Virus record (IMG/VR): IMGVR_UViG_3300028886_000028 | Span: 160,001-224,000 of that record | Strand: one strand, 5' to 3' | DNA length: 64,000 bases | Source of the DNA: a virus | Taxonomy: Duplodnaviria > Caudoviricetes | Shown here: one piece after another, positions 1-31,741 of the stretch | How positions within the stretch are numbered: the first letter of the stretch is position 1 | How the letters are laid out: every line of letters begins with the position of its first letter | Notes under the pieces: generated by a model | Seen by the model: the letters and a program-made list of their open reading frames with translations, nothing else | Database searches by the model: none | What the model was told of the DNA's origin: nothing | Program-made: the position numbers and the translations under genes

Positions 1-2
1 AG

Positions 3-4821: not shown

Positions 4822-4841
4822 CCAACAGGTATATAGTTCCC
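4822..4841 (-). repeat. ~20-bp cassette-end site, reverse orientation (CCAACAGGTATATAGTTCCC)
   Basis: Matches the sites at 14879, 21479, 30843 and 31722. Confidence 0.8.
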
Positions 4842-5011
4842 TAAATTAATATTACACTCACATTCACATATTAAGCCTAAGTAATTATACCGTCGTTGTT
4901 ACTGCAACGATGGTTCTTTATTTATAAAGATAGTTATTTATTTGTTTATTTCAACAATTAATGCTATTTTTACATTAAAAAGATATTTATTAATATAAAA
5001 TTTAGTGAAGT

Positions 5012-5191
5012 ATGTTTAAGTTAGTAAGTAATATAAAAAACTCTAAATGGTCATTCATGAATGGCTACAATATATTTAATATGGAAACTGTTTGGCTATC
5101 AAAGAAAGAAGATGCACGTAAGTATTCTTTATTAGATGAAAATGGCAACAAACTTGATGTTAATGTTGAAGATTTTTTAGTTGATGAATAA
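5012..5191 (+). CDS. Small hypothetical protein (59 aa)
   Basis: ATG..TAA ORF read manually, downstream of an ATATTTAT motif. Confidence 0.5.
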   Translation: MFKLVSNIKNSKWSFMNGYNIFNMETVWLSKKEDARKYSLLDENGNKLDVNVEDFLVDE

Positions 5192-5207
5192 TAAATTAGA
5201 ATCATAT

Positions 5208-5843
5208 ATGATAAATAAAATAACAGATAAAGGCTTTAAATTTTCAAGTATTGTAAATAATGTTTTGAAAGAGTCTTTATCCAGATTGGCGTATCATTTC
5301 ACGTCTTTAAAGAAATTTTATCAAATGGTAGATTCTGATTCAATTATATTTTCCACAGCTCATGGCACTGATGAGTTAATAAATGCTGATTATGGTAGGG
5401 GTGCTCCTTATTATTTGTCAACAACAAGAGTTCGTGATGGAAGATTTGGGTATTCTAGTGGATTAAATACAAGAATAGAATTGAATTCTGATTTCTTCAA
5501 TAGTAGGTTTCATTCAGGGCCCGTTAATTTCTTTGTGCCTGACGAAAGGGAAAGAAATTACCACAGTAAGCAAAATGTAGGAAAAGCAGAAAACGAAGAT
5601 AGAATTTTTTCAAATGTAAAGGTTTTAGAAGGTTTATCTAAATGCATTAATAGGGTAGATATATATTTGAATATACCTAATGAGGAACTGCCTTTATTCA
5701 AGCAAAGATATTATGATATATATTTGATGCTTCGTGACATATATAATACAGGTATAGGTCTTAAAACCTTTATTTATAACGATGAAAAAGAATTTAATAG
5801 ACAAGGAAAAAATATAACAGAAATAATATTAAAAATGTTGTAA
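5208..5843 (+). CDS. Hypothetical protein, possibly ADP-ribosyltransferase-like fold
   Basis: The YHFT...YLSTTR...ENEDR pattern resembles ART catalytic strands; preceded by an LKE-type leader. Confidence 0.4.
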   Translation: MINKITDKGFKFSSIVNNVLKESLSRLAYHFTSLKKFYQMVDSDSIIFSTAHGTDELINADYGRGAPYYLSTTRVRDGRFGYSSGLNTRIELNSDFFNSRFHSGPVNFFVPDERERNYHSKQNVGKAENEDRIFSNVKVLEGLSKCINRVDIYLNIPNEELPLFKQRYYDIYLMLRDIYNTGIGLKTFIYNDEKEFNRQGKNITEIILKML

Positions 5844-5850
5844 AAATCAT

Positions 5851-7332
5851 ATGGGAAGTTATATAAAAATATTTAATACTCATGAAGAGTATCTTGAATG
5901 GGTAGAAACTTCATTGGTAGAGCCTAACATTTCATTTTGTAAAGATAAGCCTCGCCAAGTACATTATCATCCATTGTCTGGATGTACAGAAGGTGTTGTG
6001 TATAAAATTACAAGCACGCCATCTTACCCTTCTATAATTGAAAACGATGTGACATCATTTGATATTAGCTTTGATTATAGAAAGGCTGATATAGATGAAC
6101 ATTGCAGAGAAACAGATATTGTAAACAGCGCTGATACTGTAACAGTTAATTGTGGCGCAAATACAGGCTCAACAGATAGAGTTGTATCAGGAGTCGTAAC
6201 ATGGAATAGAAACGATATTGAATATAACGTTGTTCAAAAAGGAGTTTGTGTTGATTCCACTGTATATGAACTTGTAGGAAATCCATCTTATCCGGCAACT
6301 ATTCAATATGACGTAACATCATTTGATATTAATTTCAATTATAAGAAAACTGTAACAACAAGTGATTGTCAAAAAACTGTTACAAACAGTGCAGATACTG
6401 TAACTGTTAATTGCGGAGCGAATACAGGTTCATCAGATAGAACAGTGTCAGGTACTGTAACATGGAATGGCATAAACATTGAGTATAGTGTTACGCAGAA
6501 AAAAGGTTGTACTGTTTCAACTGTATATGAGCTTGTAGGAAATCCATCTTATCCAGCAACAATTGAATACGATACAACATCATTTGTTATTAACTTTAAT
6601 TACAAAAAAACTGATACAAATGAGTATTGCCAAGAAACTGTTACAAACAGTGCAGATACTGTAACTGTTAATTGTGGCGCGAATACAGGTTCGTCAGATA
6701 GAACAGTATCCGGTACCGTAACATGGAATGGAATTAATATTGAATATAACGTTACACAAAGTGGCTATTCTGACCCGTATGGAGGCTATGAGTATGTTGA
6801 CTTAGGTCTTCCTAGTGGATTAAAATGGGCTAAATATAATATTGGTGCTTCCAATGAAAGCGAAGTAGGAATGTATTTTTCATACGGAAATATAGTCGGG
6901 CATTATAATTGTGACGGGTATGATTTTTCATCCGCTAGTTACAGTACAACAAACGGTTATAGATTAAGCGGAAATATACCTCAAAATTCACAGTATGATG
7001 CGGCTATTGCTATTTGGGGTAATGGATGGAGAATGCCGACGCGAGACGAATTTCAAGAATTAATAAATAATACAACTTGTTCTTATGATTCAAATACATA
7101 TACATTCACTATAACAAGTAAAATAAATGGTAAATCAATTAAAATAAAAGCTTCAGGATATTGGGATAATACTTCTTGCCCTAGCCTTACGACAACATCA
7201 ATATATATCATGTCTTCCACATTATCAGGAAAATATGGAGTATCATTGAATGCCTCTTCTTATGGCGATTATAAAATGCACGTATATGGTAATAGATTTA
7301 CAGGCTTACCAATTCGTCCTGTACATAGTTAA
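5851..7332 (+). CDS. Anchor-peptide + 3 tandem ~87-aa beta modules + C-type lectin domain
   Basis: Divergent N-terminal peptide; three PSYP..I....TSF...DTVTVNCGANTG repeats; YVDLGLPSGLKWA...WRMPTRDE...PIRPV. Confidence 0.8.
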   Translation: MGSYIKIFNTHEEYLEWVETSLVEPNISFCKDKPRQVHYHPLSGCTEGVVYKITSTPSYPSIIENDVTSFDISFDYRKADIDEHCRETDIVNSADTVTVNCGANTGSTDRVVSGVVTWNRNDIEYNVVQKGVCVDSTVYELVGNPSYPATIQYDVTSFDINFNYKKTVTTSDCQKTVTNSADTVTVNCGANTGSSDRTVSGTVTWNGINIEYSVTQKKGCTVSTVYELVGNPSYPATIEYDTTSFVINFNYKKTDTNEYCQETVTNSADTVTVNCGANTGSSDRTVSGTVTWNGINIEYNVTQSGYSDPYGGYEYVDLGLPSGLKWAKYNIGASNESEVGMYFSYGNIVGHYNCDGYDFSSASYSTTNGYRLSGNIPQNSQYDAAIAIWGNGWRMPTRDEFQELINNTTCSYDSNTYTFTITSKINGKSIKIKASGYWDNTSCPSLTTTSIYIMSSTLSGKYGVSLNASSYGDYKMHVYGNRFTGLPIRPVHS

Positions 7333-7368
7333 TAAAAGAGCAATCTTTGTTGATTGCTCTTTTTCATT

Positions 7369-8385
7369 TTAAAATAGTTCATATTCTTGCATTTTTTTTG
7401 CTTGTCTCAAACACATTACAATTCCTTTATATCCATATTTTTCATATATTTCGCTTGGGTCTTTTCCTAAATCTGTATTGATTAATTTTATTTTGCCGTA
7501 TAGTCTTCCATGATTTAATTCTTTGTATATATTTTTATTTTCATCCATTGTATCATTATCAAGCCATATATTTATGTTTGCGTTTGCATTTTTGATAATT
7601 TCCCAATATAATTTAAACTCTTTATTAATTGCTTTTCCCAATAAAGGAACTGAATTTGGAACTACTATATGGTCGAATGGGCCTTCTACTATCGTAATAT
7701 CTGCATCCCATTGAAGTTTATCTTCATTGAAAATTATATTTTTCCTTTCTGTTTTTGGATTGAAATATTTTACCATTCCTTTTCTATCAAGATAATCTCT
7801 TCCTGTCCAGTAATTTAAATCGCCATATAAATCATGTGATGGAATATATATTCTATATGATGAAATATATTCGTCTTTGTTGTATTCCGTGAAACCTATG
7901 TTAAATCTATCAATAATATCCCATCCAATTCCTCTATTGTTTAGATATTCAAGTGCTTTTTTTGGATAGTATTTATCTTTCCTAAACTGTTTAAAGGTTT
8001 TGGGCAGCATCAAATCTTCAATATCAATTGATTTTGTATCAATGTTAAATTCATCTTCCGAAAATTTTAATTTATATAGTTTACTTTCACGAAATGAACG
8101 TATTGCTTCTTTATAATCATTCAATAATTGTTCATTTCCATACAGTTTAATGAGCTTCAAAATAGAGCCACTCATTTGTTCCCCTTCATTAGAACACGAC
8201 CAACAGTGATAACGCTGAATCTGTAAATTAACTTCCAGATTAAATTTATGTGCTTCCTTTTCTCCTTTATTTTCTATACATTTTGGACATCCAAACTGTA
8301 GCTGCATGTTTTTACCATCAAATCCATTTTTTGCTTCTCCAAGAAATGATGCTAATATATTATACATTTTATCAAGTTCATCCAT
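7369..8385 (-). CDS. DNA primase (T4 gp61/DnaG-like)
   Basis: Zn finger CPKC...HCWSC, YL..RGI, TOPRIM EGPFD and LDND, KDP. Confidence 0.88.
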   Translation of the reverse strand: MDELDKMYNILASFLGEAKNGFDGKNMQLQFGCPKCIENKGEKEAHKFNLEVNLQIQRYHCWSCSNEGEQMSGSILKLIKLYGNEQLLNDYKEAIRSFRESKLYKLKFSEDEFNIDTKSIDIEDLMLPKTFKQFRKDKYYPKKALEYLNNRGIGWDIIDRFNIGFTEYNKDEYISSYRIYIPSHDLYGDLNYWTGRDYLDRKGMVKYFNPKTERKNIIFNEDKLQWDADITIVEGPFDHIVVPNSVPLLGKAINKEFKLYWEIIKNANANINIWLDNDTMDENKNIYKELNHGRLYGKIKLINTDLGKDPSEIYEKYGYKGIVMCLRQAKKMQEYELF

Positions 8386-8473
8386 AATTAAATATTTTTG
8401 TAGGCAAATATACATAAAAATTTTAGAAAAACAAAGCTGAATAGATATTTATATTTAAAAAATATTATTTTAA

Positions 8474-8752
8474 ATGGATAAGAAAAAAGTAATTAGGGAT
8501 AGTGATATTTTGAGAGGAATGGAAATGATGGTTGATTATGAGCCTACTGTTTATGGCTATAATGGTCATTATTATTACACAAATCTTGCTGAAGAATCAG
8601 CAATAATTGATGACCACACACATAGATTTGATGAACATTCTCTTGATGATACTCAGGGAATTATTTGGCAAGATAATTCTTTAGATGAAAATAATTTGGA
8701 AGAAAAACAAGTTGAATGGCTTAAAAAGGCATTCTGGTTGTATTATTATTAA
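8474..8752 (+). CDS. Hypothetical protein
   Basis: ORF downstream of the late-type motif. Confidence 0.6.
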   Translation: MDKKKVIRDSDILRGMEMMVDYEPTVYGYNGHYYYTNLAEESAIIDDHTHRFDEHSLDDTQGIIWQDNSLDENNLEEKQVEWLKKAFWLYYY

Positions 8753-8772
8753 ATAATTGAAAAATATATAAT

Positions 8773-9435
8773 ATGATGAAAAGGCAAATAAAATTAACAG
8801 AATCTGAATTTAAATCAGTTATAGAAGGAGCAGTTAGCAAATTGGTTAAAGAATATACTGATTTTGATAAACGAAAATTTTATGGCAGGGCGTCTTCAGA
8901 TGAAGATGATGATTTTAACGAGCAGCCGGCAAATAACATTGCTTCAGAAGGAAAACAGTATAAAGTGAATGAATCTCAGCTTTATTCAATTATAAAAGAG
9001 TCTGTAATGAAAATTTTGAAAGAATCAGGCGATACTCATAGATTCGGAGCAGGAAAGTATGGATTGGCTATGGATGCTGCCAGCAAAGCAAGGTCTTTAG
9101 GCAGAATTAGACAAAGTGATAATTTAAAATCATATGCAGCTGATGATTTTAATGAAAGATATGGCATGAATGGATTTGAAATGGATGAATATGGCACGTT
9201 AAGGCATAGAGGTGAAGATGGAAAAGAAAGAATGTATAGACCGTCCAGTATGATTAAAAATCTTGAAGCACAAAAAGGTTTGCAAGGAGGAAATGATAAA
9301 CTTGATAATGCTTTAAGGAATAATTCTTATATTAAAAATGCAGCTCAAATTGCAAAAGCATACCCAAGGAAAAAAATGACAAGCGGAATTGATACAATTG
9401 AAAAAGTTGATAACGGAATATATGGGAATCAATAA
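8773..9435 (+). CDS. Putative internal head protein with two LTES/VNES-type leader motifs
   Basis: IKLTESEFKSVIEGAVSKLVKE and YKVNESQLYSIIKESVMKILKE. Confidence 0.6.
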   Translation: MMKRQIKLTESEFKSVIEGAVSKLVKEYTDFDKRKFYGRASSDEDDDFNEQPANNIASEGKQYKVNESQLYSIIKESVMKILKESGDTHRFGAGKYGLAMDAASKARSLGRIRQSDNLKSYAADDFNERYGMNGFEMDEYGTLRHRGEDGKERMYRPSSMIKNLEAQKGLQGGNDKLDNALRNNSYIKNAAQIAKAYPRKKMTSGIDTIEKVDNGIYGNQ

Positions 9436-9538
9436 AAGCGAGGTTAAGTAGCCTCGCTTTTTTATATACTTTATTAAACCGCAATCGTATTTTTTATAAA
9501 ATTTCAATTTTACTCATGCAGCAAATATACAAAAAAAA

Positions 9539-10318
9539 TTAAATGTATGTTATTCTATGAACTTTTTTATCCCAATACTCAACATCATATTCAATTTTAG
9601 TCGGAGTTGTTTCATTTCCATCAGTTGATATTGAAGATGAAATTGAATCAACTTTCATTTCAAGTTCTCCGTATTTTTTTTTGTTTAAATACCCAAGACA
9701 AGCAACATAACTATCACTAGCATCGAAGTTTTCTTTCCTAAGTTCTCCTTTTTTGTCATAGACCCATTCAATATCAGGAAATAATTTTGCCACTTTATCT
9801 TGCATGACAGTTTTTTTATCGACCTCCCAACTATAGCTTCCAAATAATACAAATTTGCTATTTGTTATTTCGTTCATAATTTTTTTATATTCGTATTGTT
9901 TTCCGTCTTTTCCATATTTTCTTATTGCCATAAGTTCTGGGAAGGAGTATTTTCTTGCATCATAACTTGAAATATATTCTGGTACAATTCCTAATACATT
10001 ATAAATGCAATCAGAAATCATGCCGTTAAATCTAAGTAAAGTGCCGCAGGTATTGATATTGTTTGAGCGCAAAAGAGGCTCTTCAATTACTGCTTCATCT
10101 ATACCTATTCCTTTAAATTTCTCTATGAATTTTTCAAAAATTTGTTTTTTTAGAAATAATTGTTCTATTCCTTTTATTTTTGAAGAGACTTTTGGGCTTA
10201 TGTGAGTTAATTCAATTATTTTTCCATAATCTGAACCATCATCAAGAAGTAACGTTATGCCAATTGTTTGCGTTGATACGTCGCACCCTAGTATAATTTT
10301 ATTTCCGTTTTTATCCAT
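9539..10318 (-). CDS. RuvC-like Holliday junction resolvase
   Basis: RNase H-fold acidic motifs ILGCDVST, IEEP and DASDS. Confidence 0.7.
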   Translation of the reverse strand: MDKNGNKIILGCDVSTQTIGITLLLDDGSDYGKIIELTHISPKVSSKIKGIEQLFLKKQIFEKFIEKFKGIGIDEAVIEEPLLRSNNINTCGTLLRFNGMISDCIYNVLGIVPEYISSYDARKYSFPELMAIRKYGKDGKQYEYKKIMNEITNSKFVLFGSYSWEVDKKTVMQDKVAKLFPDIEWVYDKKGELRKENFDASDSYVACLGYLNKKKYGELEMKVDSISSSISTDGNETTPTKIEYDVEYWDKKVHRITYI

Positions 10319-10465
10319 GTATATTATATATTATTAATATTATTAACCGGAATATATACCGGATTTTTTTAAAAAATATATAATTTTAAATATTTTTAAA
10401 CATTAATTTAAAAAAATTACTTTTTTACATATTTTTTTTGTATATTTGTAAAAATAATATATATT

Positions 10466-10825
10466 ATGTTTATAACCATACCTAGAGTATTAGAGAATGA
10501 TATAATGAATTTTGTTAGGTTAAACAATGTGGAAGATGTAAACAGTTTTCTTGCAAGTTGTTTACGTGATGGGTTTAATATAGCAAAATATGGTTATTCA
10601 CCACAAGATAATTTCAATAAAGAAAATAAACCATTTAAAATAGAAGAATATGGAACAGAAGAAAAAGTTGACATTGAAGGATTGGAGAAAAAAGAAACAA
10701 AGAAAAGAGGAAGGCCAAAAAAGCAGCAATCAACAGAGGAAGAAAATGTCAAATCAGTTGAAGAAAGAAAAGAAGAGCAGCAGCCAATAAAACCGAAGAA
10801 AACAATTAGAATAATTAAGAAATAA
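10466..10825 (+). CDS. Hypothetical protein with AT-hook-like KKRGRPKK
   Basis: ORF behind a TAnnTTTG promoter. Confidence 0.65.
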   Translation: MFITIPRVLENDIMNFVRLNNVEDVNSFLASCLRDGFNIAKYGYSPQDNFNKENKPFKIEEYGTEEKVDIEGLEKKETKKRGRPKKQQSTEEENVKSVEERKEEQQPIKPKKTIRIIKK

Positions 10826-10827
10826 TT

Positions 10828-13206: not shown

Positions 13207-13232
13207 TTTTTTAGAAAAAATGTTTAATTTTA

Positions 13233-13961: not shown

Positions 13962-13985
13962 TATTTATTATAAAATATAATTATA

Positions 13986-14878: not shown

Positions 14879-14897
14879 GGGAATTATATACCTGTTT
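14879..14897 (+). repeat. ~20-bp cassette-end site, forward orientation (GGGAATTATATACCTGTTT)
   Basis: Lies about 110 nt upstream of the anchor-peptide gene at 14991. Confidence 0.7.
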
Positions 14898-14990
14898 ACA
14901 ATAAACTATAGAATGCAGTCAGAAATGGCTGCATTTTTTGTTGCCTTAGATATTTATATAAAAAAATTAGATTTTAAAAAAGTAATAGCT

Positions 14991-16028
14991 ATGAAAAATT
15001 TTAAATTATTTAGTGCTCATACTGATTATGAGGCAGCTCAGAGCAGTTTAATACTACCAAATGTATCATTTTGTCTTGATACGCCAAATGAGGTACATTA
15101 TAATCCATTTGAGTGGTGTGAAGAAACTAGTATATATGAAGTAATAGGTAGTCCTTCATATCCATCTACAATAAATGGTGATATAACATCATTTGATATT
15201 GCAATTAGTTATAGAAGGACTGATACAAGTAGCTCTTGTACTGAAACTGTGACTGAAGGCACAGATACTGTTACCATTGAATGTGGTCAGAATCCAAGCA
15301 CAAGTGATACAAGGACTGTAAGTGGTACAGTTGATTATCATGGTAACGAGATTGAATATAGTGTTACTCAAAATAAGCTTAGTAATAATTCAGCAATTAC
15401 ATATTACGCAGAAAGTAAATTACTTGAGACAACTGATAGTAAATCAGATGGATTACGTACAAATGCGTTTAATGTATCAATTAAAAGCCATACATTCAGT
15501 AACGGTATAGGAACAATAACATTTAGTGGAACTTTAGGAACTATAGGTAGTTATGCTTTCCAAGGTTGTACTGGTCTTACAAGTATAGTTATACCAGATA
15601 GTGTAACAACTATTGGTTATGATGCTTTCAATAGATGTAGAAGCCTTACAAGTATAAATATACCTGATAGCGTTACAAGTATTGGTGACAATGCTTTCTA
15701 TAAATGTAGCGGCCTTACGAATATAGTTATACCTGATAGTGTTACAAGTATTGGTAGTAATGCTTTCGATAGTTGTTCTAATATGACAAGCTGTACAATA
15801 GGTAGTGGCGTAACAAGTATTAGTAATTATGCTTTCTATAATTGTAGTGGTCTTACAAGTATAACATGTAATGCAATGACAGCACCAACAGTAACATCAA
15901 ATTCATTTTACGGCGTCAAAAACGGTGGTACATTATATGTTCCTATAGGTAGCAGCGGTTATGACACTTGGATGGGAACAGGAAGTTATTACTTAGGAAG
16001 TATTAATTGGACTAAGGTAGAACAATAA
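14991..16028 (+). CDS. Anchor-peptide + one PSYP module + BspA LRR protein
   Basis: MKNFKLFSAHTDYEAAQSSLILPNVSFC...VHYNPF; module shared with 5851; about 5 LRRs; WTKVEQ cap. Confidence 0.88.
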   Translation: MKNFKLFSAHTDYEAAQSSLILPNVSFCLDTPNEVHYNPFEWCEETSIYEVIGSPSYPSTINGDITSFDIAISYRRTDTSSSCTETVTEGTDTVTIECGQNPSTSDTRTVSGTVDYHGNEIEYSVTQNKLSNNSAITYYAESKLLETTDSKSDGLRTNAFNVSIKSHTFSNGIGTITFSGTLGTIGSYAFQGCTGLTSIVIPDSVTTIGYDAFNRCRSLTSINIPDSVTSIGDNAFYKCSGLTNIVIPDSVTSIGSNAFDSCSNMTSCTIGSGVTSISNYAFYNCSGLTSITCNAMTAPTVTSNSFYGVKNGGTLYVPIGSSGYDTWMGTGSYYLGSINWTKVEQ

Positions 16029-20635: not shown

Positions 20636-21373
20636 ATGAAATATTTAAAATTATTTAATGACCATGCTGAATATGAAGTTGCTAAGAATGGTTTAATACT
20701 ACCTAATGTATCAAATTGTGTTAATACACAAAATGAAGTGCATTATAATCCTTATGACCCATATGCAGGCCATGAGTATGTTGAGATTGGCGGCTTGAAA
20801 TGGGCAACAATGAACATTGGTGCTTCGCAGCCAAGTGATTATGGTTTGTATTTCCAATGGGGTGACACACAAGGCTACACTGCTGAACAAGTAGGTAGTG
20901 GTGAAGGACAGAAATACTTTGGTTGGGAAGACTATAAATACGGTAATGGTACAAGTTCGCCAGGTGCTACAGGAATGACCAAGTATAACTCTACTGATGG
21001 CTTAACAACACTTGAGGCTGTTGATGATGCTGCTGTTGCTAATTGGGGTGGCAGTTGGCGTATGCCAACAACTGATGAATTCCAAGCTCTTGGTGCTGCC
21101 GTAAACACTGCATGGACTCAAGTTAACAACGTGTATGGTATGTTATGTACAGATAAGGAAGATAGTTCCAAGACATTATTCTTCCCTGCTGCTGGCAGCT
21201 GTCTCAATGGCAGTGTCAGATTCGTAGGCAATGACGGTGGCTATTGGTCTAGTTCTCTTGACACTGATGGTGGGCAGGACGCCTACGACTTGGACTTTTT
21301 CAGTAGCTATGCTGACTGGGGTAGCAGCGGCAGCCGCTGCTGCGGCTTCGCAGTTCGTCCTGTGGTTGGTTGA
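20636..21373 (+). CDS. Anchor-peptide + C-type lectin protein; probable DGR target
   Basis: Conserved N-terminal peptide; KWATMNIGA, YFQWG, WRMPT, FFPAAG, YWSSS, G.AVRPV; GC- and NNC-rich 3' region. Confidence 0.88.
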   Translation: MKYLKLFNDHAEYEVAKNGLILPNVSNCVNTQNEVHYNPYDPYAGHEYVEIGGLKWATMNIGASQPSDYGLYFQWGDTQGYTAEQVGSGEGQKYFGWEDYKYGNGTSSPGATGMTKYNSTDGLTTLEAVDDAAVANWGGSWRMPTTDEFQALGAAVNTAWTQVNNVYGMLCTDKEDSSKTLFFPAAGSCLNGSVRFVGNDGGYWSSSLDTDGGQDAYDLDFFSSYADWGSSGSRCCGFAVRPVVG

Positions 21374-21500
21374 GAATTCATCATCACCAATAAACCAAAA
21401 TAAACTTGATTGCCACAAGCGTCAGCCCAAGGCAATCAAGTTTTCTATTTATGCCACCTTGTTATGCATATACTAATGCCAACAGATATATAGTTTCCAA
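21350..21500 (+). repeat. Conserved 3' end + hairpin + cassette end, nearly identical to 30841-30990 (reverse strand)
   Basis: About 150 bp near-identity, including a 13-bp stem (AAACTTGATTGCC 21402-21414 / GGCAATCAAGTTT 21431-21443) and the end site at 21479-21498. Confidence 0.92.
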
Positions 21501-21591
21501 ACTTAAAGCGAACTTTTCATGTTAAATTCTTTATTTATTAGTATTTTTTTTTATTTTTTATAAAAATAATAATTCAGAAAGCAAAAAGTAA

Positions 21592-23258: not shown

Positions 23259-23506
23259 TGGAACTTTCACTTAATAGTATCAAGATTTATGAACTTGGTG
23301 AATATATCACTAAATTCCTTGGAGAAAATGGTTTAACAAGAGAAAATGACCTCGTAATAAAGGTTACAAAAGAAGAATTAAAAAAAATAGATGAAGACCT
23401 TTATTATAGAAATAAACCAGAAGGAAAAGAATTTATACCATCAGATAATGATGTTGTGGTTAAATTTGAGAATCTAAATATCATATTTACAGTTGAAGAA
23501 AATTAA
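23258..23506 (+). CDS. Hypothetical protein
   Basis: Coupled TAATG start. Confidence 0.6.
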   Translation: MELSLNSIKIYELGEYITKFLGENGLTRENDLVIKVTKEELKKIDEDLYYRNKPEGKEFIPSDNDVVVKFENLNIIFTVEEN

Positions 23507-24189
23507 GGTCTTAATGAGTTTCTACGAATTTTTAAATCTGACCAGTTGGTCAGATTTTTTATTTTTTGAAACCAAGTTTTTCTAAGTTTGCTATGAAAAG
23601 CGTCTCCTGAAAAGAAAACATATTTAAGTTTATTTTTTTCGCATTCTCTTTCTAATTCATTAAATAGTCTTATGCAATCTGATTCATTTTTACACATAAC
23701 CATGTTAAGTGAATTTGTTGTAGAAATTAAAAGTTTATTTTGGTAAATTAATATTTGTTTGAAATTATATTTATTTGATTCATTTGATATTAAGTTACCA
23801 TATATCCATTCAAAATTTTTTCTTTGAAAAACTGGATGAAAGCCATATACCCAAAAAGTCTCTTCTTTATCATAGTTTTCCCTGTCATATATTATCCAAT
23901 TTTCATTATTTGTTTTATAATTAATTATTTTACCGTTCTCGTCTTTTAATTTGGTACTTTCAGTATTATCATCATTTCTTTTAATAATATACAATTCATA
24001 ATTTGCATTTATTAATTTTCCAACATTGATATATCTAACCGGAAATTTTATTTTTTTATTTTCTGAAATTAATTCTTCAAACTTTTTATTAACCAATTTT
24101 TCCGATGCGCAGTTATACAATGTTTTAATCATTTTTCCATTGCTTACTAATATAATATGATATATATTTTTTTTGGGTATTTTTTGCAT
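23503..24189 (-). CDS. Hypothetical protein
   Basis: ORF track. Confidence 0.65.
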   Translation of the reverse strand: MQKIPKKNIYHIILVSNGKMIKTLYNCASEKLVNKKFEELISENKKIKFPVRYINVGKLINANYELYIIKRNDDNTESTKLKDENGKIINYKTNNENWIIYDRENYDKEETFWVYGFHPVFQRKNFEWIYGNLISNESNKYNFKQILIYQNKLLISTTNSLNMVMCKNESDCIRLFNELERECEKNKLKYVFFSGDAFHSKLRKTWFQKIKNLTNWSDLKIRRNSLRP

Positions 24190-24293
24190 ATTTTAATTAA
24201 ATTATTTCTTTTTTTTAATATTTTTTTGTATATTTGTTGTGAATTATATAAAATATTTGTTAAAATAAGTTAAAATAAATAGAAATTATAGGT

Positions 24294-24752
24294 ATGAAAC
24301 TATTTGAGACATCACAAGACATTAAAGATTTGGTGCAAGAAAAATGGGAAGATACTGGTTTGGCTCAGGTTGGCATAGATTTAAAAGTAATTTCAACTCC
24401 AAAGGCTAAAACTATATTGAAGGCCCAAAGGTCAAACGCAACAACTCATTTTTTAACAAAAAAAGATGTAATAGTAACAGTGTTTGAGGAAGCATTTGAT
24501 AGATTATCTGACGAGCATAAAAATTTGCTTGTTGAAGGGGCGTTGAGCAATATAAATTATGATTCAGAAAAAGACAAAATAAGTGTAGATGGAGATTTTG
24601 CTAGAGAAGTTTTCAGAATGAGGCGTAAATATCCAAATTATGTTGATGTTGCTGAAGAATCATACATAGTTATTGAGCAAATAGAGGAAGAAGAAAAACG
24701 TAGAAAAGAAGAAGAACGTCTTGCAAAAAAAGAAAAGAAAAATAATAGATAA
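24294..24752 (+). CDS. Hypothetical protein
   Basis: ORF behind a TAnnTTTG promoter. Confidence 0.65.
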   Translation: MKLFETSQDIKDLVQEKWEDTGLAQVGIDLKVISTPKAKTILKAQRSNATTHFLTKKDVIVTVFEEAFDRLSDEHKNLLVEGALSNINYDSEKDKISVDGDFAREVFRMRRKYPNYVDVAEESYIVIEQIEEEEKRRKEEERLAKKEKKNNR

Positions 24753-24765
24753 AATTATATAAGTA

Positions 24766-25455
24766 ATGAAAGATAAATTAATACATGTATGTTTCATAAT
24801 TGATTCTAGTGGGTCAATGGCGGGAAGCGAAAAAGATGTTATAGGAGGATTCAAGAAAACAATTGATGAACAAAAAGCAGTAAAGGATGGAGAGTGTATA
24901 GTTTCTTTGTATGATTTTGCTAGCGAAGTGAGACAAGTATATCTTGGTAAGTCTCTTGACGAAGTTGATAATATTGACTATAAGGTTGGAGGCATGACGA
25001 AGCTATACGATGGTATAGGGACTGCTATTGATGAAATTGGAAAATGGCTTTCTGATATGAAAGAGGAAGACAGACCAAGTAAAAATCTTATAGTAATCAT
25101 AACAGATGGCGGAGAAAATTCATCAATTGAATATTCTTTAAAAGACGTTAAAGACAGAATAAAAACTCAAACAGATGTATACTCATGGGATTTTATTTAT
25201 TTGGGTAATGACCTTTCTGATGCTAAAGATGCGAATGACTTAGGCTTTAAATTTAAAGGGTTCACAACAAAGAAAAAGTTCTATAACAATTATAATGCCA
25301 TTAGCACAGGCTTAACTGCTTTTAGGTGTGCAGCAACTGTTTCTGAAGCAAATTTGGCACTTACTAGTAGTATAGAATCTTCTATTAATTCCTTAAATGA
25401 AGAATATAAGGATGATACTGGCATAGATTTTACTAATAGTGATAATTATGATTGA
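24766..25455 (+). CDS. von Willebrand factor A domain protein
   Basis: MIDAS motif DSSGSM, T.LYD, IITDG.EN.S. Confidence 0.9.
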   Translation: MKDKLIHVCFIIDSSGSMAGSEKDVIGGFKKTIDEQKAVKDGECIVSLYDFASEVRQVYLGKSLDEVDNIDYKVGGMTKLYDGIGTAIDEIGKWLSDMKEEDRPSKNLIVIITDGGENSSIEYSLKDVKDRIKTQTDVYSWDFIYLGNDLSDAKDANDLGFKFKGFTTKKKFYNNYNAISTGLTAFRCAATVSEANLALTSSIESSINSLNEEYKDDTGIDFTNSDNYD

Positions 25456-25495
25456 AAGATATGGGAGTGGTAGAACACTCCCTTTTTGAATTAAA

Positions 25496-26311
25496 ATGGC
25501 AGAATATGATTTATATTTAGACGATTGCATTAGTAGAATGCAAAAATTAGTCAAAGAAGGCGTTAAAGTAGATTTAACTATAAGCAGCCCCCCTTATGAT
25601 GAAATATATGATTATAGTGGCACTCTGATATGGAATTATGATATATTTAAAGAAGTAGCAAAAAAACTATATGAAATCACAAAAGACGGTGGCATTGTTG
25701 TATGGGTTGTAAATGACCAAATGAAAAATGGGTCTGAATCAGGTACATCGTTTAAGCAAGCGTTATATTTTATGGAGGTTGGTTTTAAATTGCATGATAC
25801 TATGATTTATGCCAAGAATAACCCTGTTCCAAATGCAAAGACAAGATACCAACAGTCATTTGAATATATGTTTGTGCTTTCCAAAGGAAAGCCTAAAACA
25901 ACTAATATACTGACAGAGCCGCGTAGTAACAAATGGAACGATAAAAGGTGCTTCAGGAAAGAAAAAAGGTTCAACAGAGATAAAGATGGACAATTTTCTG
26001 TTAAAAAGGATTTTAAGTTTGACATTAACGAAGAAGTACCAAGAAGAAATATTTGGTATTATTCTGTTGGACTAAATGGTAGTACCAAAGATAAGGATGC
26101 ATTTAAGCATCCTGCTATTTTTCCTGAGAAATTAGCGCAAGACCACATATTAAGTTGGTCTAATGAAGGAGATTTGGTTTTAGACCCATTTATGGGAAGT
26201 GGAACGACTGGTAAAATGGCTATTATTAACAATAGGAATTTTATTGGTATTGAAAAAGTTGATGAATATTATAATATAGCCATTGAAAGAATTAGTCAGG
26301 CTACTAAGTAA
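25496..26311 (+). CDS. DNA methyltransferase, beta class (probably m4C)
   Basis: SPPY catalytic motif precedes HPAIFP and DPFMGSGTT. Confidence 0.92.
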   Translation: MAEYDLYLDDCISRMQKLVKEGVKVDLTISSPPYDEIYDYSGTLIWNYDIFKEVAKKLYEITKDGGIVVWVVNDQMKNGSESGTSFKQALYFMEVGFKLHDTMIYAKNNPVPNAKTRYQQSFEYMFVLSKGKPKTTNILTEPRSNKWNDKRCFRKEKRFNRDKDGQFSVKKDFKFDINEEVPRRNIWYYSVGLNGSTKDKDAFKHPAIFPEKLAQDHILSWSNEGDLVLDPFMGSGTTGKMAIINNRNFIGIEKVDEYYNIAIERISQATK

Positions 26312-26327
26312 ATATATTTTTAGCATA

Positions 26328-27140
26328 ATGATTGATATAAATAAAATATATTGCGGCGATGCTGTAAAAATTCTTGAAAATATTGATAACGATAGTGTTG
26401 ACCTTGTTGTAACATCGCCGCCATATAGTAATCTTAGGAATTACGGTAACACTTTAATTGATTGGAATCATGATAAATTCAAAGAAATAGCCAATGAATT
26501 AAATAGGGTTTTAAAGCCGGGAGGGGTTATTGTATGGGTTGTTGGTGATAAAACAGAAAATGGCTCTGAAACTTGTATTCCTTTTAAGCAAACATTGTAT
26601 TTCAGAGATATAGGACTAAACCTTAACGATACGATGATATTCTTTAAAAGTAATCCTATGCCACAAGTTAAACAGCCAAGGTATAGAGATTGTTTTGAGT
26701 ATATGTTTGTTTTTTCTAAAGGGAAGCCAAGCACATTCAATCCTATCATGAGAAAATGTACTGAGAGTGGAAAACATTATAAATCAACTGTTAGAGTTAT
26801 AAACACAGATAATGATAGAAAAGATATTGATTATTTTGTAAGCGATGAAACAGTTGACTATAATGTATGGAGAATGTCCGTAGCGCAAAATAAAATTTTG
26901 TATGATTTAGGAGATAAAAAAATAAAACATCCGGCAGTATTTCCGTATGATATTCCGTTTAAACATATAAAAACCTGGACAAATGAAGGAGATTTAGTTT
27001 TAGACCCATTTATGGGAAGCGGAACCACAGCATTAGCAGCAATAAATTTGAAAAGGAATTATATAGGTATTGATGCTAATGAAGATTATTGTAAAATTGC
27101 TGACATTAGGATAAAAGCAAACGAAACATCTAAAAAATAA
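26328..27140 (+). CDS. DNA methyltransferase, beta class (probably m4C), tandem paralogue
   Basis: TSPPY, HPAVFP, DPFMGSGTT. Confidence 0.92.
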   Translation: MIDINKIYCGDAVKILENIDNDSVDLVVTSPPYSNLRNYGNTLIDWNHDKFKEIANELNRVLKPGGVIVWVVGDKTENGSETCIPFKQTLYFRDIGLNLNDTMIFFKSNPMPQVKQPRYRDCFEYMFVFSKGKPSTFNPIMRKCTESGKHYKSTVRVINTDNDRKDIDYFVSDETVDYNVWRMSVAQNKILYDLGDKKIKHPAVFPYDIPFKHIKTWTNEGDLVLDPFMGSGTTALAAINLKRNYIGIDANEDYCKIADIRIKANETSKK

Positions 27141-27151
27141 AATTATAAGTA

Positions 27152-27826
27152 ATGGACAGTTTAATAAAAGATTTTAGAAAGTTCGCATTTGATAAAACAA
27201 ATGTAAGGCCATCAGCGTTAGATGCCAAAGTTAAATCAGTAGATAATATAATGCCATTTATTTTGGAAGAAAGAAAAATGAATGTCACCCAAATGGATGT
27301 TTTCAGTAGACTATTATTTGATAGAATTATTTATTTTTCCGGCGTGGTAGATGAAGATTCTTGTAATACAGTTATTGCACAATTGCTTTATTTATCATCT
27401 ACAGATAATAGGGATATAAACATATACATCAATAGTCCCGGTGGCTCAGTTGTAGATGGCCTTGGTGTAATTGACACTATTAATTTTGTTCCTTGTGACA
27501 TAACAACAACGTGTGTTGGAATGGCAGCATCAATGGGTGCAGTTTTGTTGAGTTGTGGCGCTAAAGGAAAAAGGCTTGTTTTGCCACATAGTAGAGTTAT
27601 GATTCATCAAGTATCTAGCAGCCAATCTGGTACTTTTTCAGACTTGGCAATTGAACTTGAACAAACTTTAAGATGCAAAAGGGATATATATAACATACTT
27701 GCTAAAAATACAGGCAAATCATATGAGCAGATAGAAAAAGATTGTGATAGAAACTTTTGGCTTATAGGTAAAGAAGCTGTAGATTATGGTATTGCTGATA
27801 AAGTTTTAAGTAAAGCTGAAAAATAA
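27152..27826 (+). CDS. clpP: ATP-dependent Clp protease proteolytic subunit
   Basis: DVFSRLL, YINSPGG, GMAASMG, RVMIHQ, DRNFW. Confidence 0.95.
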   Translation: MDSLIKDFRKFAFDKTNVRPSALDAKVKSVDNIMPFILEERKMNVTQMDVFSRLLFDRIIYFSGVVDEDSCNTVIAQLLYLSSTDNRDINIYINSPGGSVVDGLGVIDTINFVPCDITTTCVGMAASMGAVLLSCGAKGKRLVLPHSRVMIHQVSSSQSGTFSDLAIELEQTLRCKRDIYNILAKNTGKSYEQIEKDCDRNFWLIGKEAVDYGIADKVLSKAEK

Positions 27827-27896
27827 AGGAGAATGAAACGTTTCTCCTTTATTTTTTAAACTAATATTATATTTATTAAAAAATAAAGTAGCAAAT

Positions 27897-28301
27897 ATGA
27901 TATTAAGGTTAATAGAATCTGATTTGCATAAGCTAATATCTTCTACAGTTAAGAAAATATTAAAGGAGAATTCAGAAAATAATGTAATATTAAGTAAAAT
28001 AGTTGAAGGCTTATCAATCTCTGGTATTCCATCAAAAATAGGGATGAATCAGGTAGACATCCCTCTTGATTACAATGGTAATGTTATCGCATGCATAGAT
28101 TATGAAATAGAAGAAAAACAAGGAGATTATAATGTGTTTATAACGTCTATTGTAATAGATGACGATGGTAAAGAATTCGAAATTGAAGATAATGGCATGG
28201 TTACGAATGCATTAAAAAATTTAATTGAACCGTGGACAGAAGATGTTGGATATTATGAAGAAGATGACGACCAATCTGGATGGAATGAAAATTGGAAATA
28301 A
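27897..28301 (+). CDS. Putative internal head protein, acidic
   Basis: MILRLIESDLHKLISSTVKKILKE leader. Confidence 0.6.
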   Translation: MILRLIESDLHKLISSTVKKILKENSENNVILSKIVEGLSISGIPSKIGMNQVDIPLDYNGNVIACIDYEIEEKQGDYNVFITSIVIDDDGKEFEIEDNGMVTNALKNLIEPWTEDVGYYEEDDDQSGWNENWK

Positions 28302-28333
28302 ATAATAATTATTATATAAAAACATTAAGAAAC

Positions 28334-28462
28334 ATGGCATGTGGATGTAAAAACAAGGCAGCAAATGCAAGTACAAATGTGGTAAAATCAGCCCCAACAC
28401 AGGAGTCTAAGCCTCAGAAGACTTCAAATGGAGCAAGAATAATCAAAAGAGAAATTAGATAA
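28334..28462 (+). CDS. Small basic protein MACGCK... (42 aa)
   Basis: ATG..TAA ORF read manually, filling the intergenic gap. Confidence 0.55.
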   Translation: MACGCKNKAANASTNVVKSAPTQESKPQKTSNGARIIKREIR

Positions 28463-28464
28463 TT

Positions 28465-28821
28465 ATGATTGACGCACCAAAAACAACATTATTAAATAAT
28501 ATAGATGACTTGGATTTAGTATTTCTTGAAGGGGAAAACGATTTAGAGTTTGAAATAGATGATTATTCATTTGTTGTAACATATTCCCTAGAAGAAGATG
28601 ATTTTTTCACTGAAGATGATGAGGAAATCAAAGGAGGAAAAAAACTGAAAATTTTATCAATAAACGCATATGATAATGTAGAGAATGAAGACATAAACGT
28701 TAACGTTGATGACGAAATGCAAAAATTATTCTCAGATTATTATAAAAATATGTTAAATGATGAAGGATATGAGCCATTAAATGTTAATTTTGGTGAATTT
28801 TCTGATTTTATGGATGAATAA
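28465..28821 (+). CDS. Highly acidic hypothetical protein
   Basis: D/E-rich ORF. Confidence 0.6.
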   Translation: MIDAPKTTLLNNIDDLDLVFLEGENDLEFEIDDYSFVVTYSLEEDDFFTEDDEEIKGGKKLKILSINAYDNVENEDINVNVDDEMQKLFSDYYKNMLNDEGYEPLNVNFGEFSDFMDE

Positions 28822-28910
28822 TTTCTTTTTTTGATATTTTTTTTGTATCTTTGCTAAAAGAAATTAATGGGGCAGAGCGTTACCTAAGAGACAACAGCCC
28901 CATTAAATTT

Positions 28911-28992
28911 GGCAGAATGGCGGAATTGGCAGACGCGCATCACTCAAAATGATGTATCTCATGGTGTAAGGGTTCAAGTCCCTTTTCTGCTA
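28911..28992 (+). tRNA. tRNA-Leu(CAA)
   Basis: GGCAGAA/TTCTGCT acceptor, CATCA-CTCAAAA-TGATG anticodon arm, long variable region, GGTTCAAGTCC T arm. Confidence 0.88.
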
Positions 28993-29039
28993 CAATTATA
29001 AAAGTAGTCCAACCTTGGCAAAGGTTAAAATATAAAACA

Positions 29040-29180
29040 AGGAAAGTAACAGCAAGCATTTGTAATACGCGATGGCTCCGCTGACTAATATGGTCGTTTA
29101 GGTTCGAATCCTAACATATGAGGATAACTCGTAGTGTGGTGGAATTGGTAGACACGGCGGAATAATTAAAATTCTTTCCT
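29040..29180 (+). ncRNA. Circularly permuted tRNA-like RNA (YrlA/Y-RNA-like architecture)
   Basis: Order is variable arm, T arm (TTAGG-TTCGAAT-CCTAA), acceptor-like hairpin closed by GATAA, then Leu-type D arm. TCCGC/GCGGA and AGGAAAG/CTTTCCT form closing stems. Confidence 0.7.
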
Positions 29181-29188
29181 AAATAGAT

Positions 29189-29276
29189 GCTCTTGTGGTG
29201 GAATTGATAGACACCCCAGAATTAGAATCTGGTGCGAAATAATAGTAGCGTGTGGGTTTGAGTCCCTCCAGGAGCA
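29189..29276 (+). tRNA. tRNA-Leu(TAG), atypical
   Basis: GCTCTTG/CAGGAGC acceptor, CCAGA-ATTAGAA-TCTGG anticodon arm. The D loop has GA instead of GG and the T loop is TTTGAGT. Confidence 0.75.
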
Positions 29277-29617
29277 CTTTTTTGAAATAAATAATATTTA
29301 TATTATGAGTCCTTGTTGGCATTGCCCTTATTTCAATAAAATGGGAAAAAGGTATTTTTGCTCATTGAAGGGTATCTATTTAACAGAAAATGGTGTAGAT
29401 TTTTGCTCTGGGCCGAGTTACAAATATAAAAAGAAACATAAAAATAGAAAAAAATGAAGAATATAACACGACAACAACAGCAACAAAGTTAAGTCGTATC
29501 AACCATATGGGAACGGTTGATACTGATATTGTATTAACCAATCCTATTTATATTATAATTATTTTTTACCTTAAGTTCCCATTAGTAACAATACTGATGG
29601 GATTTTTTGTTTTATAA

Positions 29618-29689
29618 TGGAGAGTGGTATAACGGCCATTACACGAGATTTTGGTCCTCGGAATCCGGGTTCGATTCCCGGCTCTCCAA
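29618..29689 (+). tRNA. tRNA-Gln(TTG)
   Basis: TGGAGAG/CTCTCCA acceptor, anticodon loop TT-TTG-GT, CCGGG-TTCGATT-CCCGG T arm. Confidence 0.88.
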
Positions 29690-29696
29690 CAAAAAA

Positions 29697-29783
29697 TGGG
29701 AGTTGGCCGAGTGGTTTAAGGCGTGTGCCTCTGGAACACATGTAGACATAAATCTACCGTAGGTTCGAATCCTACATTCCCAA
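29697..29783 (+). tRNA. tRNA with CTG (Gln) anticodon and long class-II variable arm
   Basis: TGGGAGT/ATTCCCA acceptor; TGTGC-CTCTGGA-ACACA anticodon arm; GTAGA-CATAAA-TCTAC variable arm; GTAGG-TTCGAAT-CCTAC T arm. Confidence 0.8.
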
Positions 29784-29853
29784 CTTTGAAAAAATGTTTT
29801 TTAACGTTAGTATATATTTATTCAAAATAAGAAATTAATTTTGAATAAAGAAA

Positions 29854-30045
29854 ATGGAATATTTTGTAGATACAGAAAGAATTAGTTTGGATTATTCATA
29901 TGATAGAATATTTAAAGAAATACCAAAATATAGATTAACATTATATGATAAATATGGGCATTTTGATGCTGACGTTTATTTAACAGATGAACAAATTGAA
30001 GATTTGCTCACGGGACTTGAAAAAATAAAAAATAACATTAAATGA
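29854..30045 (+). CDS. Hypothetical protein
   Basis: ORF track. Confidence 0.55.
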   Translation: MEYFVDTERISLDYSYDRIFKEIPKYRLTLYDKYGHFDADVYLTDEQIEDLLTGLEKIKNNIK

Positions 30046-30182
30046 TATGGGTACATTATTTAATTTTGCAATGCATGTTATTTTATGGCCTATTGTTTTG
30101 TTTCTGGTCTTTACAGCGACTACGAATATTGATTTAATTTTTTATGCTATAAAGAAAGTATTAATTAAAATAAAAGAATATT

Positions 30183-30392
30183 ATGAATTTATTAGAAAAC
30201 GTATTTGTAAAAAAAGCAATAAAGTCGATGATGACGGCGGAGCAATTCGAGACTATGCAGAATTTTATGACAGCAGTTCAGTCTGGGAAGATTGACCAAA
30301 ACAAACTTAAAAATGTTGGTGAAAAATTATCTAAAATATCGCCGGAAGAAGTGAATAATCTTTTGGACATAATAGACAAAAACTTGAAGTAG
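30183..30392 (+). CDS. Hypothetical protein
   Basis: ORF track; overlaps the 30047..30295 ORF. Confidence 0.5.
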   Translation: MNLLENVFVKKAIKSMMTAEQFETMQNFMTAVQSGKIDQNKLKNVGEKLSKISPEEVNNLLDIIDKNLK

Positions 30393-30438
30393 TAATTCAA
30401 CTACTCAAGTTTTTCTTTTTTTATAAAAACATTTTTAA

Positions 30439-30825
30439 ATGGTACATGTTATTAATATAAAAACTGATGATAAGACAATGGATGAAGGATATTTCTACGT
30501 AGGCCGTAGCAAATATAATAATTCTCCACTTGGAAACCCCTTTACATGTAAAGGAAAGCGAACAAGTTTAGCAAAACTATCATTTCCAACAGTTGAACAA
30601 GCAATAGAAGCCTACGAAATGTATTTTGATGCCATGTACGGTAAAGATGAAGATTTCACGAAGGCTTTTGATGAAATATACGAATATTATAAAACTGGAA
30701 AAGATGTATATCTTGGATGTTTTTGTGCACCGGGTAAATGCCATGCATCTATCATTGCTAAAAAATTGCAACAGAAATTAATAAAGGAAAAAATGGAAGA
30801 AAGAAAAAAGGAGAAGCTCAAATAA
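30439..30825 (+). CDS. DUF4326-like protein
   Basis: YVGR...SPLGNPF...LGCFCAP..CHA. Confidence 0.8.
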   Translation: MVHVINIKTDDKTMDEGYFYVGRSKYNNSPLGNPFTCKGKRTSLAKLSFPTVEQAIEAYEMYFDAMYGKDEDFTKAFDEIYEYYKTGKDVYLGCFCAPGKCHASIIAKKLQQKLIKEKMEERKKEKLK

Positions 30826-30842
30826 GCCTCTCCTTTTTATTT

Positions 30843-31741
30843 GGGAACTATATATCTGTTGGCATTAGTATATGCATAATAAGGTAGTATAAATAGAAAA
30901 CTTGATTGCCTTGGGCTGACGCTTGTGGCAATCAAGTTTATTTTGGTTTATTGGCGATGATGAATTCTCAACCTACCACAGGGCGAACCGAGAAGCCGTA
31001 GTAACGGTAGTCCTTGAACACGCCCTTGGCACCATTGAGAAAGAAGAAGCTGTAAGCGTTACCACTACCATTAGGAGAAGAACCCCAATAGTAACCGCTA
31101 TTGCCTACATCGCTCTGGCTACCATTGTACCAGCGGCCAACAGCAGGAAGAAATAAAACAGCCCCATTGGTGGCTGTGAATGTACCACCATTTATTCCAC
31201 TACCTTTGTAGTTTGTTACCCACTGATAAGTAGTATTAGCTGTCAATTCTTGCATTTGTACACTCGTTGGCATATGCCAAGAGCCACCCCACACTTGCAC
31301 TGCTGTATCTACAGAAGAATCTAATGGGTATTCTGTTCCACTATAGTTGCTATCGCCACTTGTTGCTGCATATTGAGCAGCGCCCTTACCGTATTGATAG
31401 TAATTACCATAATCCGTTTCTGATGAAGCACCCACGTTCATTGTAGCCCAAAGTGTACCACTTGGTAGACCAAGGTCAACATACTCATGGCCTGCATATG
31501 GGTCAACATAAGGATTATAATGCACTTCATTAGGCGTATCATTACATGTTGATACATTTGGTAGTATCAAATTACTCTGTGCTGATTCGTAATCAGTATG
31601 AGCATTAAATTTTTTTAAGTATTTCATAATTCTATTTTGTTTTTACTATAAATATCAGTTATATGTATAAATGAGCAATCCTTTGGTTGATTTTCTCATT
31701 ATTATAAACTAATAGATATTACCAATAGGTATATAATTCCG
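30843..31741. mobile_element. Putative non-autonomous gene cassette (IR-promoter-lectin gene-hairpin-IR)
   Basis: Imperfect terminal inverted repeats at 30843-30862 and 31722-31741; flanks TTTTATTT / TTTTGTTT; no transposase inside. Confidence 0.6.
30968..31627 (-). CDS. Anchor-peptide + C-type lectin protein; probable DGR target
   Basis: MKYLKKFNAHTDYESAQSNLILPNVS...; YVDLGLPSGTLWATMNVGA; FLPA.G...YW.SS...GFSVRPV. Confidence 0.88.
   Translation of the reverse strand: MKYLKKFNAHTDYESAQSNLILPNVSTCNDTPNEVHYNPYVDPYAGHEYVDLGLPSGTLWATMNVGASSETDYGNYYQYGKGAAQYAATSGDSNYSGTEYPLDSSVDTAVQVWGGSWHMPTSVQMQELTANTTYQWVTNYKGSGINGGTFTATNGAVLFLPAVGRWYNGSQSDVGNSGYYWGSSPNGSGNAYSFFFLNGAKGVFKDYRYYGFSVRPVVG

Follow-up and report, generated by a model that had tools for sequence, protein, structure and literature searches.

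The 20-bp site GGGAAYTATATAYCTRTTGG, which occurs five times beside 'anchor' genes in the DNA analysed here, is identified with a probability of about 0.9 as the terminal inverted repeat (TIR) of a passenger-carrying insertion sequence (IS), a 'transporter IS' of the IS1595 family (ISXO2-like, with a DDE transposase). All copies in this genome appear to have become transposase-less through internal deletion. The window, the whole stretch of 64,000 nucleotides, comprises bases 160001-224000 of IMG/VR record IMGVR_UViG_3300028886_000028, a rumen phage genome of 401,138 bp (G000) with 31% G+C that is rated complete by CheckV. The anchor genes encode proteins with a common N-terminal peptide.

Distribution of the 20-bp site

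The window was searched on both strands for matches to GGGAAYTATATAYCTRTTGG with up to three mismatches. Exactly five were found, with 0-2 mismatches each (Table 1), against a chance expectation of 0.02; five were reached in 0/100 shuffles. Their alternating orientation had been described in an earlier note on this DNA and is reproduced by the motif search, with the second site ending at 14898 and not at 14897. The rule given there, forward orientation for a site upstream of its adjacent anchor gene and reverse orientation for a downstream one, is true in every case. The full genome contains eight sites at ≤3 mismatches, including one at genome position 310012 (a solo inverted repeat, IR) and those on a second complete cassette at genome 325565-327557. 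Positions within 150 bp of an anchor gene end account for 1.9% of the genome, and seven of the eight sites fall there (binomial P = 8e-12; seven reached in 0/200,000 permutations); the statistical link between sites and anchor genes thus holds genome-wide.

Three weaker ends, which belong to a diverged subtype, were revealed by a profile scan and a hairpin scan; they lie at genome positions 83297, 90063 and 90789, none of them beside an anchor gene. They read GGCAATAATATAGCAGTTG and GGGAACAACATACTTGTT, are all in + sense and are each followed by the same AAATGCAGCC..GGCTGCATTTT hairpin. The 8-bp flank at 83297 matches that at genome 164822 at 7/8 positions, a pairing that was rejected as probably due to chance in AT-rich DNA.

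Identification of the site as a transposon end

A related IMG/VR phage of 412,514 bp (G001) has many genes in common with G000 at ∼35-70% protein identity, partly in syntenic order. It contains exactly two variant sites, both GGGAACGATATACTTGTTGA, in inverted orientation and 2.4 kb apart. The element that they delimit is 2,465 bp long (231301-233765) and is flanked by a perfect 8-bp duplication, TTTATTTT. Inside it are an anchor gene with leucine-rich repeats (LRRs) and a convergent open reading frame (ORF) of 340 amino acids, whose product matches DDE_Tnp_IS1595 (PF12762; E = 6.6e-44, 150 bits, cut-off 27) and a zinc ribbon (PF12760; E = 7.4e-9, 35.9 bits, cut-off 25.4). Six transposase relatives align at 57-75% identity, with the Cys/His columns of the zinc ribbon invariant.

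A search with the G001 transposase returned 19 IMG/VR loci and more than 500 bacterial-genome stretches, of which the best 80, mostly from rumen Prevotella and Bacteroidales metagenome-assembled genomes (MAGs), were analysed. The site is present at 15 of the 19 viral and 61 of these 80 bacterial transposase loci, usually in + sense and 100-250 bp upstream of the transposase; at many loci a second, inverted copy lies 1.6-4.6 kb away. This allowed 47 two-ended elements of 1.57-4.6 kb to be delimited in rumen phages and Prevotella/Bacteroidales genomes. The 8-bp flanking duplication is perfect in 36 of the 47, and three more match at 7/8 positions. From the inverted sites, the IS1595 transposase and the 8-bp duplications in these relatives, we take the 20-bp site to be an IS1595-family TIR; as the elements are mostly far longer than a bare transposase gene, they should be of the passenger-carrying kind.

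A logo of 102 ends gives the 21-bp form GG[G/T/C]AA[C/T][T/G]ATATAC[C/T]TGTTG[G/A/T]C. The exact IR of G000 (20/20) bounds an intact element in a Prevotella MAG (L070) and is matched at 20/20 positions by one IR of another (L069), and the resemblance of the G000 ends to intact IS ends continues past the 20 bp, out to ∼50 bp. Because the IRs vary at 5-6 positions, a scan of IMG/VR with the exact motif had yielded one 8.7-kb contig only. No deposited phage genome with a transposase relative of >40% identity was found by tblastn. The ends of the ISNwi1 subgroup ('ggnnatTAT' in the ISfinder family table) would fit GGGAATTAT.

The intact elements have a common layout: IR, ∼100-230 bp, transposase gene, convergent passenger with its own terminator, promoter-like GATATTTAT(A/T), hairpin and IR. 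A rival idea is that the sites act in transcription or its regulation (as a phage promoter, an operator or a terminator-linked signal) and were copied with duplicated anchor genes. The sites do have terminator-like hairpins and a promoter-like GATATTTATA motif as neighbours, and IS ends often carry promoters. However, a unit has the same sequence, inverted, at each of its ends; in bacterial chromosomes the sequence delimits elements that have target duplications and carry unrelated passengers; and an anchor homologue with 82% identity in a different context (L010) keeps the hairpin and the promoter and has no IRs. A purely regulatory origin is very unlikely on this evidence.

Several points weigh against the IS1595 identification. 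G000 itself has no full-length element, and the link is made through relatives; at the second complete cassette (325565-327557) a target duplication is missing, and comparison of flanks does not assign the solo ends to one another. Some copies may have come into place by recombination or duplication and not by transposition. G001 offers no clean empty site, as its corresponding slots hold other genes, and some of the 'bacterial' copies come from MAG bins and are possibly mis-binned mobile DNA.

Copies in the window and their transposase scars

The window contains one complete transposase-less cassette, three one-ended relics and one relic without ends (Table 1). Units of passengers between IRs without a transposase are known as mobile insertion cassettes (MICs) and single ends as solo IRs, as defined in PMC3129680, and judged by their sequence the window copies fit these definitions. 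The suggestion in the earlier note that the sites are the ends of older, partly eroded cassettes is thereby borne out: the gene cassettes to which they belong derive from a transposon and have decayed to different degrees.

Table 1 Copies of the IS1595-type element in the window. Coordinates are window positions; mm, mismatches to GGGAAYTATATAYCTRTTGG
Feature	Position	Strand	Details
Transposase 3' remnant, lineage A, MYFHWYDHNHKVV + stop	979-1020	-	Behind LRR anchor gene ending at 929; no IR, both ends eroded
Passenger	3432-4703	+	Anchor N-terminus, two Big_2 Ig-like domains (PF02368, E = 1e-34), lectin-like domain
Transposase 3' remnant, 14 codons + stop, KVYFHWYDHNHKVA	4748-4792	-	Fused directly to position ∼50 of IS end
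Transposase-side IS end, 50 bp, lineage A	4792-4841	-	20-bp IR at 4822-4841; relic 3432-4841
Site 1	4822-4841	-	0 mm
Site 2; solo TIR, passenger-side	14879-14898	+	2 mm; relic 14879-16028
Passenger	14994-16028	+	Anchor N-terminus, BspA-type LRR domain (PF13306, E = 8e-66); transposase-side IS end lost
Passenger	20636-21373	+	Anchor N-terminus, lectin-like domain; passenger-side IS end lost
Transposase 3' remnant, lineage B, YMHNKVA + stop	21449-21472	-	
Site 3; solo TIR, transposase-side, lineage B	21479-21498	-	1 mm; behind anchor-lectin gene 20636-21373; relic 20636-21498
Complete cassette, 899 bp, MIC type	30843-31741	-	Both ends match full-length IS ends
Site 4; TIR, transposase-side, lineage B	30843-30862	+	0 mm; matches intact IS ends
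Transposase 3' remnant, YMHNKVV + stop	30869-30892	+	Cf. C-termini ...HWYMHNKVA (L066), ...HWYTHNKVA (L065)
Passenger, 219 aa	30968-31627	-	∼40-aa anchor N-terminus, FISUMP-like lectin domain
Site 5; TIR, passenger-side	31722-31741	-	1 mm; also encodes last seven codons + stop of ORF 31719-32066(-)

The complete cassette has the order IR, transposase remnant, terminator, anchor-lectin gene, promoter-like motif, hairpin, IR. Its flanks, TTTTATTT (30835-30842) and TTTTGTTT (31742-31749), match at 7/8 positions, which fits the 8-bp duplication of the family; no convincing partner emerged for any of the solo ends when their flanks were compared. The solo IR at 14879-14898 is followed by a hairpin with a T-run (14913-14939) and a promoter-like AGATATTTATA (14948-14958), a layout as in the intact elements.

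No IS1595 transposase homologue was detected in G000 by tblastn or by a PF12762 search of the whole genome. What remains of the transposase is its last 7-14 codons, at two junctions that are each present in 2-3 copies. In lineage A, KVYFHWYDHNHKVA corresponds to the transposase C-terminus (cf. NVYFHWYNHTHNVA in L070, VYFHWYMHNKVSA in L068 and DVYYHWYTHNKVA in L065), and the terminator that follows is the hairpin found between transposase and passenger in intact copies, e.g. L066. The IS end at 4792-4841 has ...TTC(C)TTxTGAATAAATATACA in common with the intact copies L046, L048 and L065, and shares ...TGAATAAATATACA with intact elements. The lineage A junction occurs in three places: behind 4703, at genome 325565 and, IR-less, behind window position 929. 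At the lineage B junction, found at 21479 and 30843, IS position ∼26 is joined to YMHNKV(A/V) and a stop; to judge from its sequence, this is a second deletion, independent of lineage A. The 168-nt tail at 21479 is 93% identical to that at 30843. The conserved non-coding tails behind otherwise unrelated adhesin genes can thus be explained as transposase scars.

Another explanation of the tails and sites would be that they are accessories (initiation of mutagenic homing site and hairpin) of a diversity-generating retroelement (DGR) acting on the lectin C-termini. The lectin-type C-termini (4511-4703, 21181-21373 and 30968-31160) are indeed GC-richer and are followed by a common hairpin. However, the G000 genome contains no reverse transcriptase domain (PF00078), and there is no template repeat, as blastn with the three lectin 3' regions retrieves paralogous tails only; the common tail consists of a terminator, a transposase remnant and an IS end, and the sites flank LRR genes too. 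This explanation is almost certainly wrong.

A further eroded end was seen outside this genome. In a near-identical phage genome (L047:6150-6330), the G001-type element stands in another context and its passenger-side IR has lost the outer part, leaving TCAACAA.

Synteny and inversion

The earlier note had treated the sites at 14879 and 21498 as a pair bracketing 6.6 kb with an anchor gene at each end. The flanks of this pair do not match, as stated there (ATTAAGTA versus AAACTTAA), and by synteny the segment does not form a unit. The genes at genome 176049-180623 are collinear with G001, inside a collinear block of 167.9-190.6 kb, and the anchor genes at the edges of the segment have their best G001 matches elsewhere: for 14994-16028 this is the IS-borne anchor gene and not a syntenic gene, and the slot of 20636-21373 is occupied in G001 by a different gene. 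The two corresponding G001 slots contain unrelated small genes, and no empty-site comparison was obtained. From this gene order, the most plausible reading of the pair is that two elements inserted separately into variable slots on either side of conserved backbone genes, each now a one-ended relic with its inner end lost.

The cassette at 30843-31741 lies exactly at a break of synteny with G001. The adjacent ORF 31719-32066(-) encodes a T5orf172/MUG113-like (GIY-YIG-related) protein, the last seven codons and stop of which come from the transposon IR; its G001 orthologue matches residues 1-107 only. The G001 orthologues of this ORF and of the left-hand neighbour gene of the cassette are 42 kb apart, and the cassette therefore marks a synteny breakpoint.

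A 175-nt inverted repeat (21334-21508 and 30833-31007, 91% complementary) encloses 9.3 kb, each arm consisting of a lectin gene 3' end, a terminator, a transposase remnant and an IR. The segment could invert by homologous recombination; its present orientation is collinear with G001. This repeat, together with the alternating copies that flank variable adhesin-like genes, is what could be held to favour the proposal that the sites are crossover sites at which a site-specific recombinase (an invertase or shufflon, as in Mu Gin and P1 Cin) flips or swaps adhesin cassettes, and the earlier note had likewise considered recombinase sites allowing inversion. We found no Resolvase (PF00239) or Phage_integrase (PF00589) domain in the 401-kb genome, hence no serine or tyrosine recombinase, and the site is not a dyad-symmetric core. 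The same sequence is an IS1595-type TIR, with 8-bp direct duplications and a neighbouring DDE transposase in 36 of the 47 related elements, and the collinear 9.3-kb segment is not inverted. A recombinase crossover site is accordingly highly improbable, and neither a DGR nor an invertase is needed at these loci. A whole-genome domain search also found no TnpB domain in G000.

Anchor genes and other passengers

There are 13 anchor genes in the G000 genome. Their products share a 40-residue N-terminus, MKYLKLFNAHTDYEAA..LILPNVSFC.DTPNEVHYNPY, after which come either BspA-type LRRs or Big_2 and FISUMP-like lectin domains, and are probably virion adhesins; the product of 3432-4703 matches PHROG families of Ig-domain structural and tail proteins. 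That of 30968-31627 aligns along its whole length, at 54% identity, with the passenger product of an intact IS from a Prevotellaceae MAG (L065); L065 itself gives a weak Fib_succ_major match. Anchor genes are the passengers of one clade of the IS1595-type elements. In other phages the loci of anchor-gene homologues mostly have no site, and the association is therefore specific to the lineage and not to the gene family.

A short distance before the start codon, all anchor passengers, the chromosomal ones included, have the GATATTTAT(A/T) motif. A motif of this type, ATATTTATA, is enriched upstream of G000 ORFs (39/91, versus 16/91 for its reverse complement), and we infer that GATATTTAT(A/T) and ATATTTATA represent a late promoter.

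Related elements with diverse passengers occur in phages and Bacteroidales (L050, L054, L058, L070, L077, L089, L094, L103, L126 and L135). Most of the non-anchor passengers matched no Pfam family; that of L077 is a 555-aa HATPase_c_3 protein and that of L094 gives a weak phosphoribosyltransferase match. Such passengers may be conflict or defence cargo.

Proposed working of the element

By analogy with its family, the transposase presumably binds both IRs. The DDE transposase would then integrate the unit into an AT-rich target with duplication of 8 bp; the duplications are observed, and the integration step is taken from the family. The hairpin near the passenger-side IR may act as an insulator. 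The copies in G000 would have lost the transposase by internal deletion in two independent events, leaving two complete transposase-less cassettes of the MIC type (one of them in the window), several one-ended relics and solo IRs. These cassettes would be immobile alone and would move only with a matching transposase supplied in trans, for example from a Prevotella host; such a supply is plausible because Prevotella MAGs (L069 and L070) contain intact elements whose IR is identical (20/20). The copies could also be used as homology for recombination.

This last role might be the only one that remains. Ends that arose as IS ends could today be nothing but patches of homology for payload swaps and rearrangement, with no transposition, a proposal that is compatible with an IS origin and that we hold to be a real possibility, somewhat short of even odds. 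G000 has no transposase, most of its copies are one-ended, and one of its two complete cassettes shows no duplication; the identical deletion junction stands behind different payloads, L046 and L065 combine the same backbone with different payloads, and the cassette at 30843-31741 sits at the synteny breakpoint. On the other side, both IRs are kept in two cassettes, and intact host elements with identical IRs could act in trans; mobilization of MICs in trans is documented (PMC4337579; PMC3129680).

Exchange of payloads, which had also been proposed for these sites, is partly supported. The IS backbones of L046, from a phage, and L065, from the Prevotellaceae MAG, share 84-85% DNA identity, yet the payloads differ, being of LRR type in one element and of lectin type in the other; in G000, one deletion lineage lies behind both payload types. 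Homologous recombination is the likely route, rather than a site-specific reaction at the 20-bp site. The anchor coding region and the terminator/transposase tail could provide the homology for such swaps.

Possible traffic between phages and hosts

Intact anchor-carrying copies with perfect duplications are found between housekeeping genes on Prevotella contigs, next to DcuA/DcuB and phosphoglucomutase genes (L066) and an isocitrate dehydrogenase gene (L069). The flanks of L065-L076 show no similarity to the two phages G000 and G001, except for one ORF beside L070. Phage and bacterial sequences are intermixed in a tree of 87 transposases, computed by a quick maximum-likelihood method, and well-supported branches force at least nine changes of label. 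Phage/bacterial pairs on the tree include L049-L067, L050-L070 and L046/L047-L065, the individual pairs being provisional as MAG bins can be contaminated. L049 and L067 are 92% identical in DNA, starting at the IR.

An IS1595-type element with adhesin cargo is thus common to giant rumen phages and Prevotella chromosomes, which provides a host link for these uncultivated phages and suggests that transposition and recombination spread receptor-binding modules among phages. A bolder proposal, which we think unlikely, is a transposon-based shuttle of phage host-range modules (virion adhesins with a phage-type late promoter, in which LRR or lectin heads can be exchanged on a common anchor) between giant Prevotella phages and the host chromosome. 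If such a shuttle operated, the host copies would form a reservoir from which phages could recapture modules by transposition or recombination, or which they could express while infecting the host, mounting the product on progeny virions. The adhesin cargo would then also explain the tolerance of an IS in lytic phage genomes. Reports of insertion sequences in virulent phage genomes are few.

Relation to known systems

The literature searched provided the concepts used here (IS1595 family, transporter IS, MIC and solo IR) and contained no description of this element or of IS-borne adhesins in jumbo phages; the principle is already known and the setting is unusual. The IS1595 family, including its passenger-carrying 'transporter IS' members, was described by Siguier, Gagnevin & Chandler (2009), as cited in PMC3129680 and PMC7986276. 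The intact relatives conform to it in having DDE_Tnp_IS1595, an N-terminal zinc ribbon, short TIRs, 8-bp duplications and passengers inside the IRs. They differ in being found both in Prevotella chromosomes and in giant, uncultivated phages of the rumen, and in the passenger of one clade, a modular gene of phage adhesin type that has a phage-type promoter motif; in G000, all copies are transposase-less.

Known MICs include MIC231 of Bacillus cereus and those carrying transcription activator-like effector (TALE) genes, bounded by TnXax1 IRs, in Xanthomonas (PMC4337579). The latter are the closest analogy: passengers lie between IRs without a transposase, solo IRs and paralogues lacking IRs accompany them, a repeat-rich gene family for host interaction is the cargo, and target duplications occur at some copies only, the candidate in G000 being the 7/8 match at 30843-31741. 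Unlike the known MICs, the G000 cassettes have a parent of IS1595 type (8-bp duplication) and not of IS231 or Tn3 type, they reside in a phage, the scars of transposase deletion can still be read, and their mobilization in trans is hypothetical.

In the invertible tail-fibre segments of phages Mu (Gin/gix) and P1 (Cin/cix), serine invertases act at crossover sites to swap C-terminal exons. The likeness lies in short inverted sites beside alternative receptor-binding genes in a phage; in contrast, G000 has no invertase, its sites bound whole genes and they are transposon ends.

Other repeats in the window

BspA-type LRR units of 69 bp (23 amino acids) form large families in many genes, both within and between paralogues, at window positions 1-930, 15460-15910, 40500-43600 and 52400-58000. 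An intergenic motif, TTTTTTTGTATATTTGT, recurs at 1860-1922, 10409-10463, 24189-24237 and 28821-28853 and fits the Bacteroidota promoter pattern TAnnTTTG; these motifs probably represent early promoters of host type and speak for a host among the Bacteroidota.

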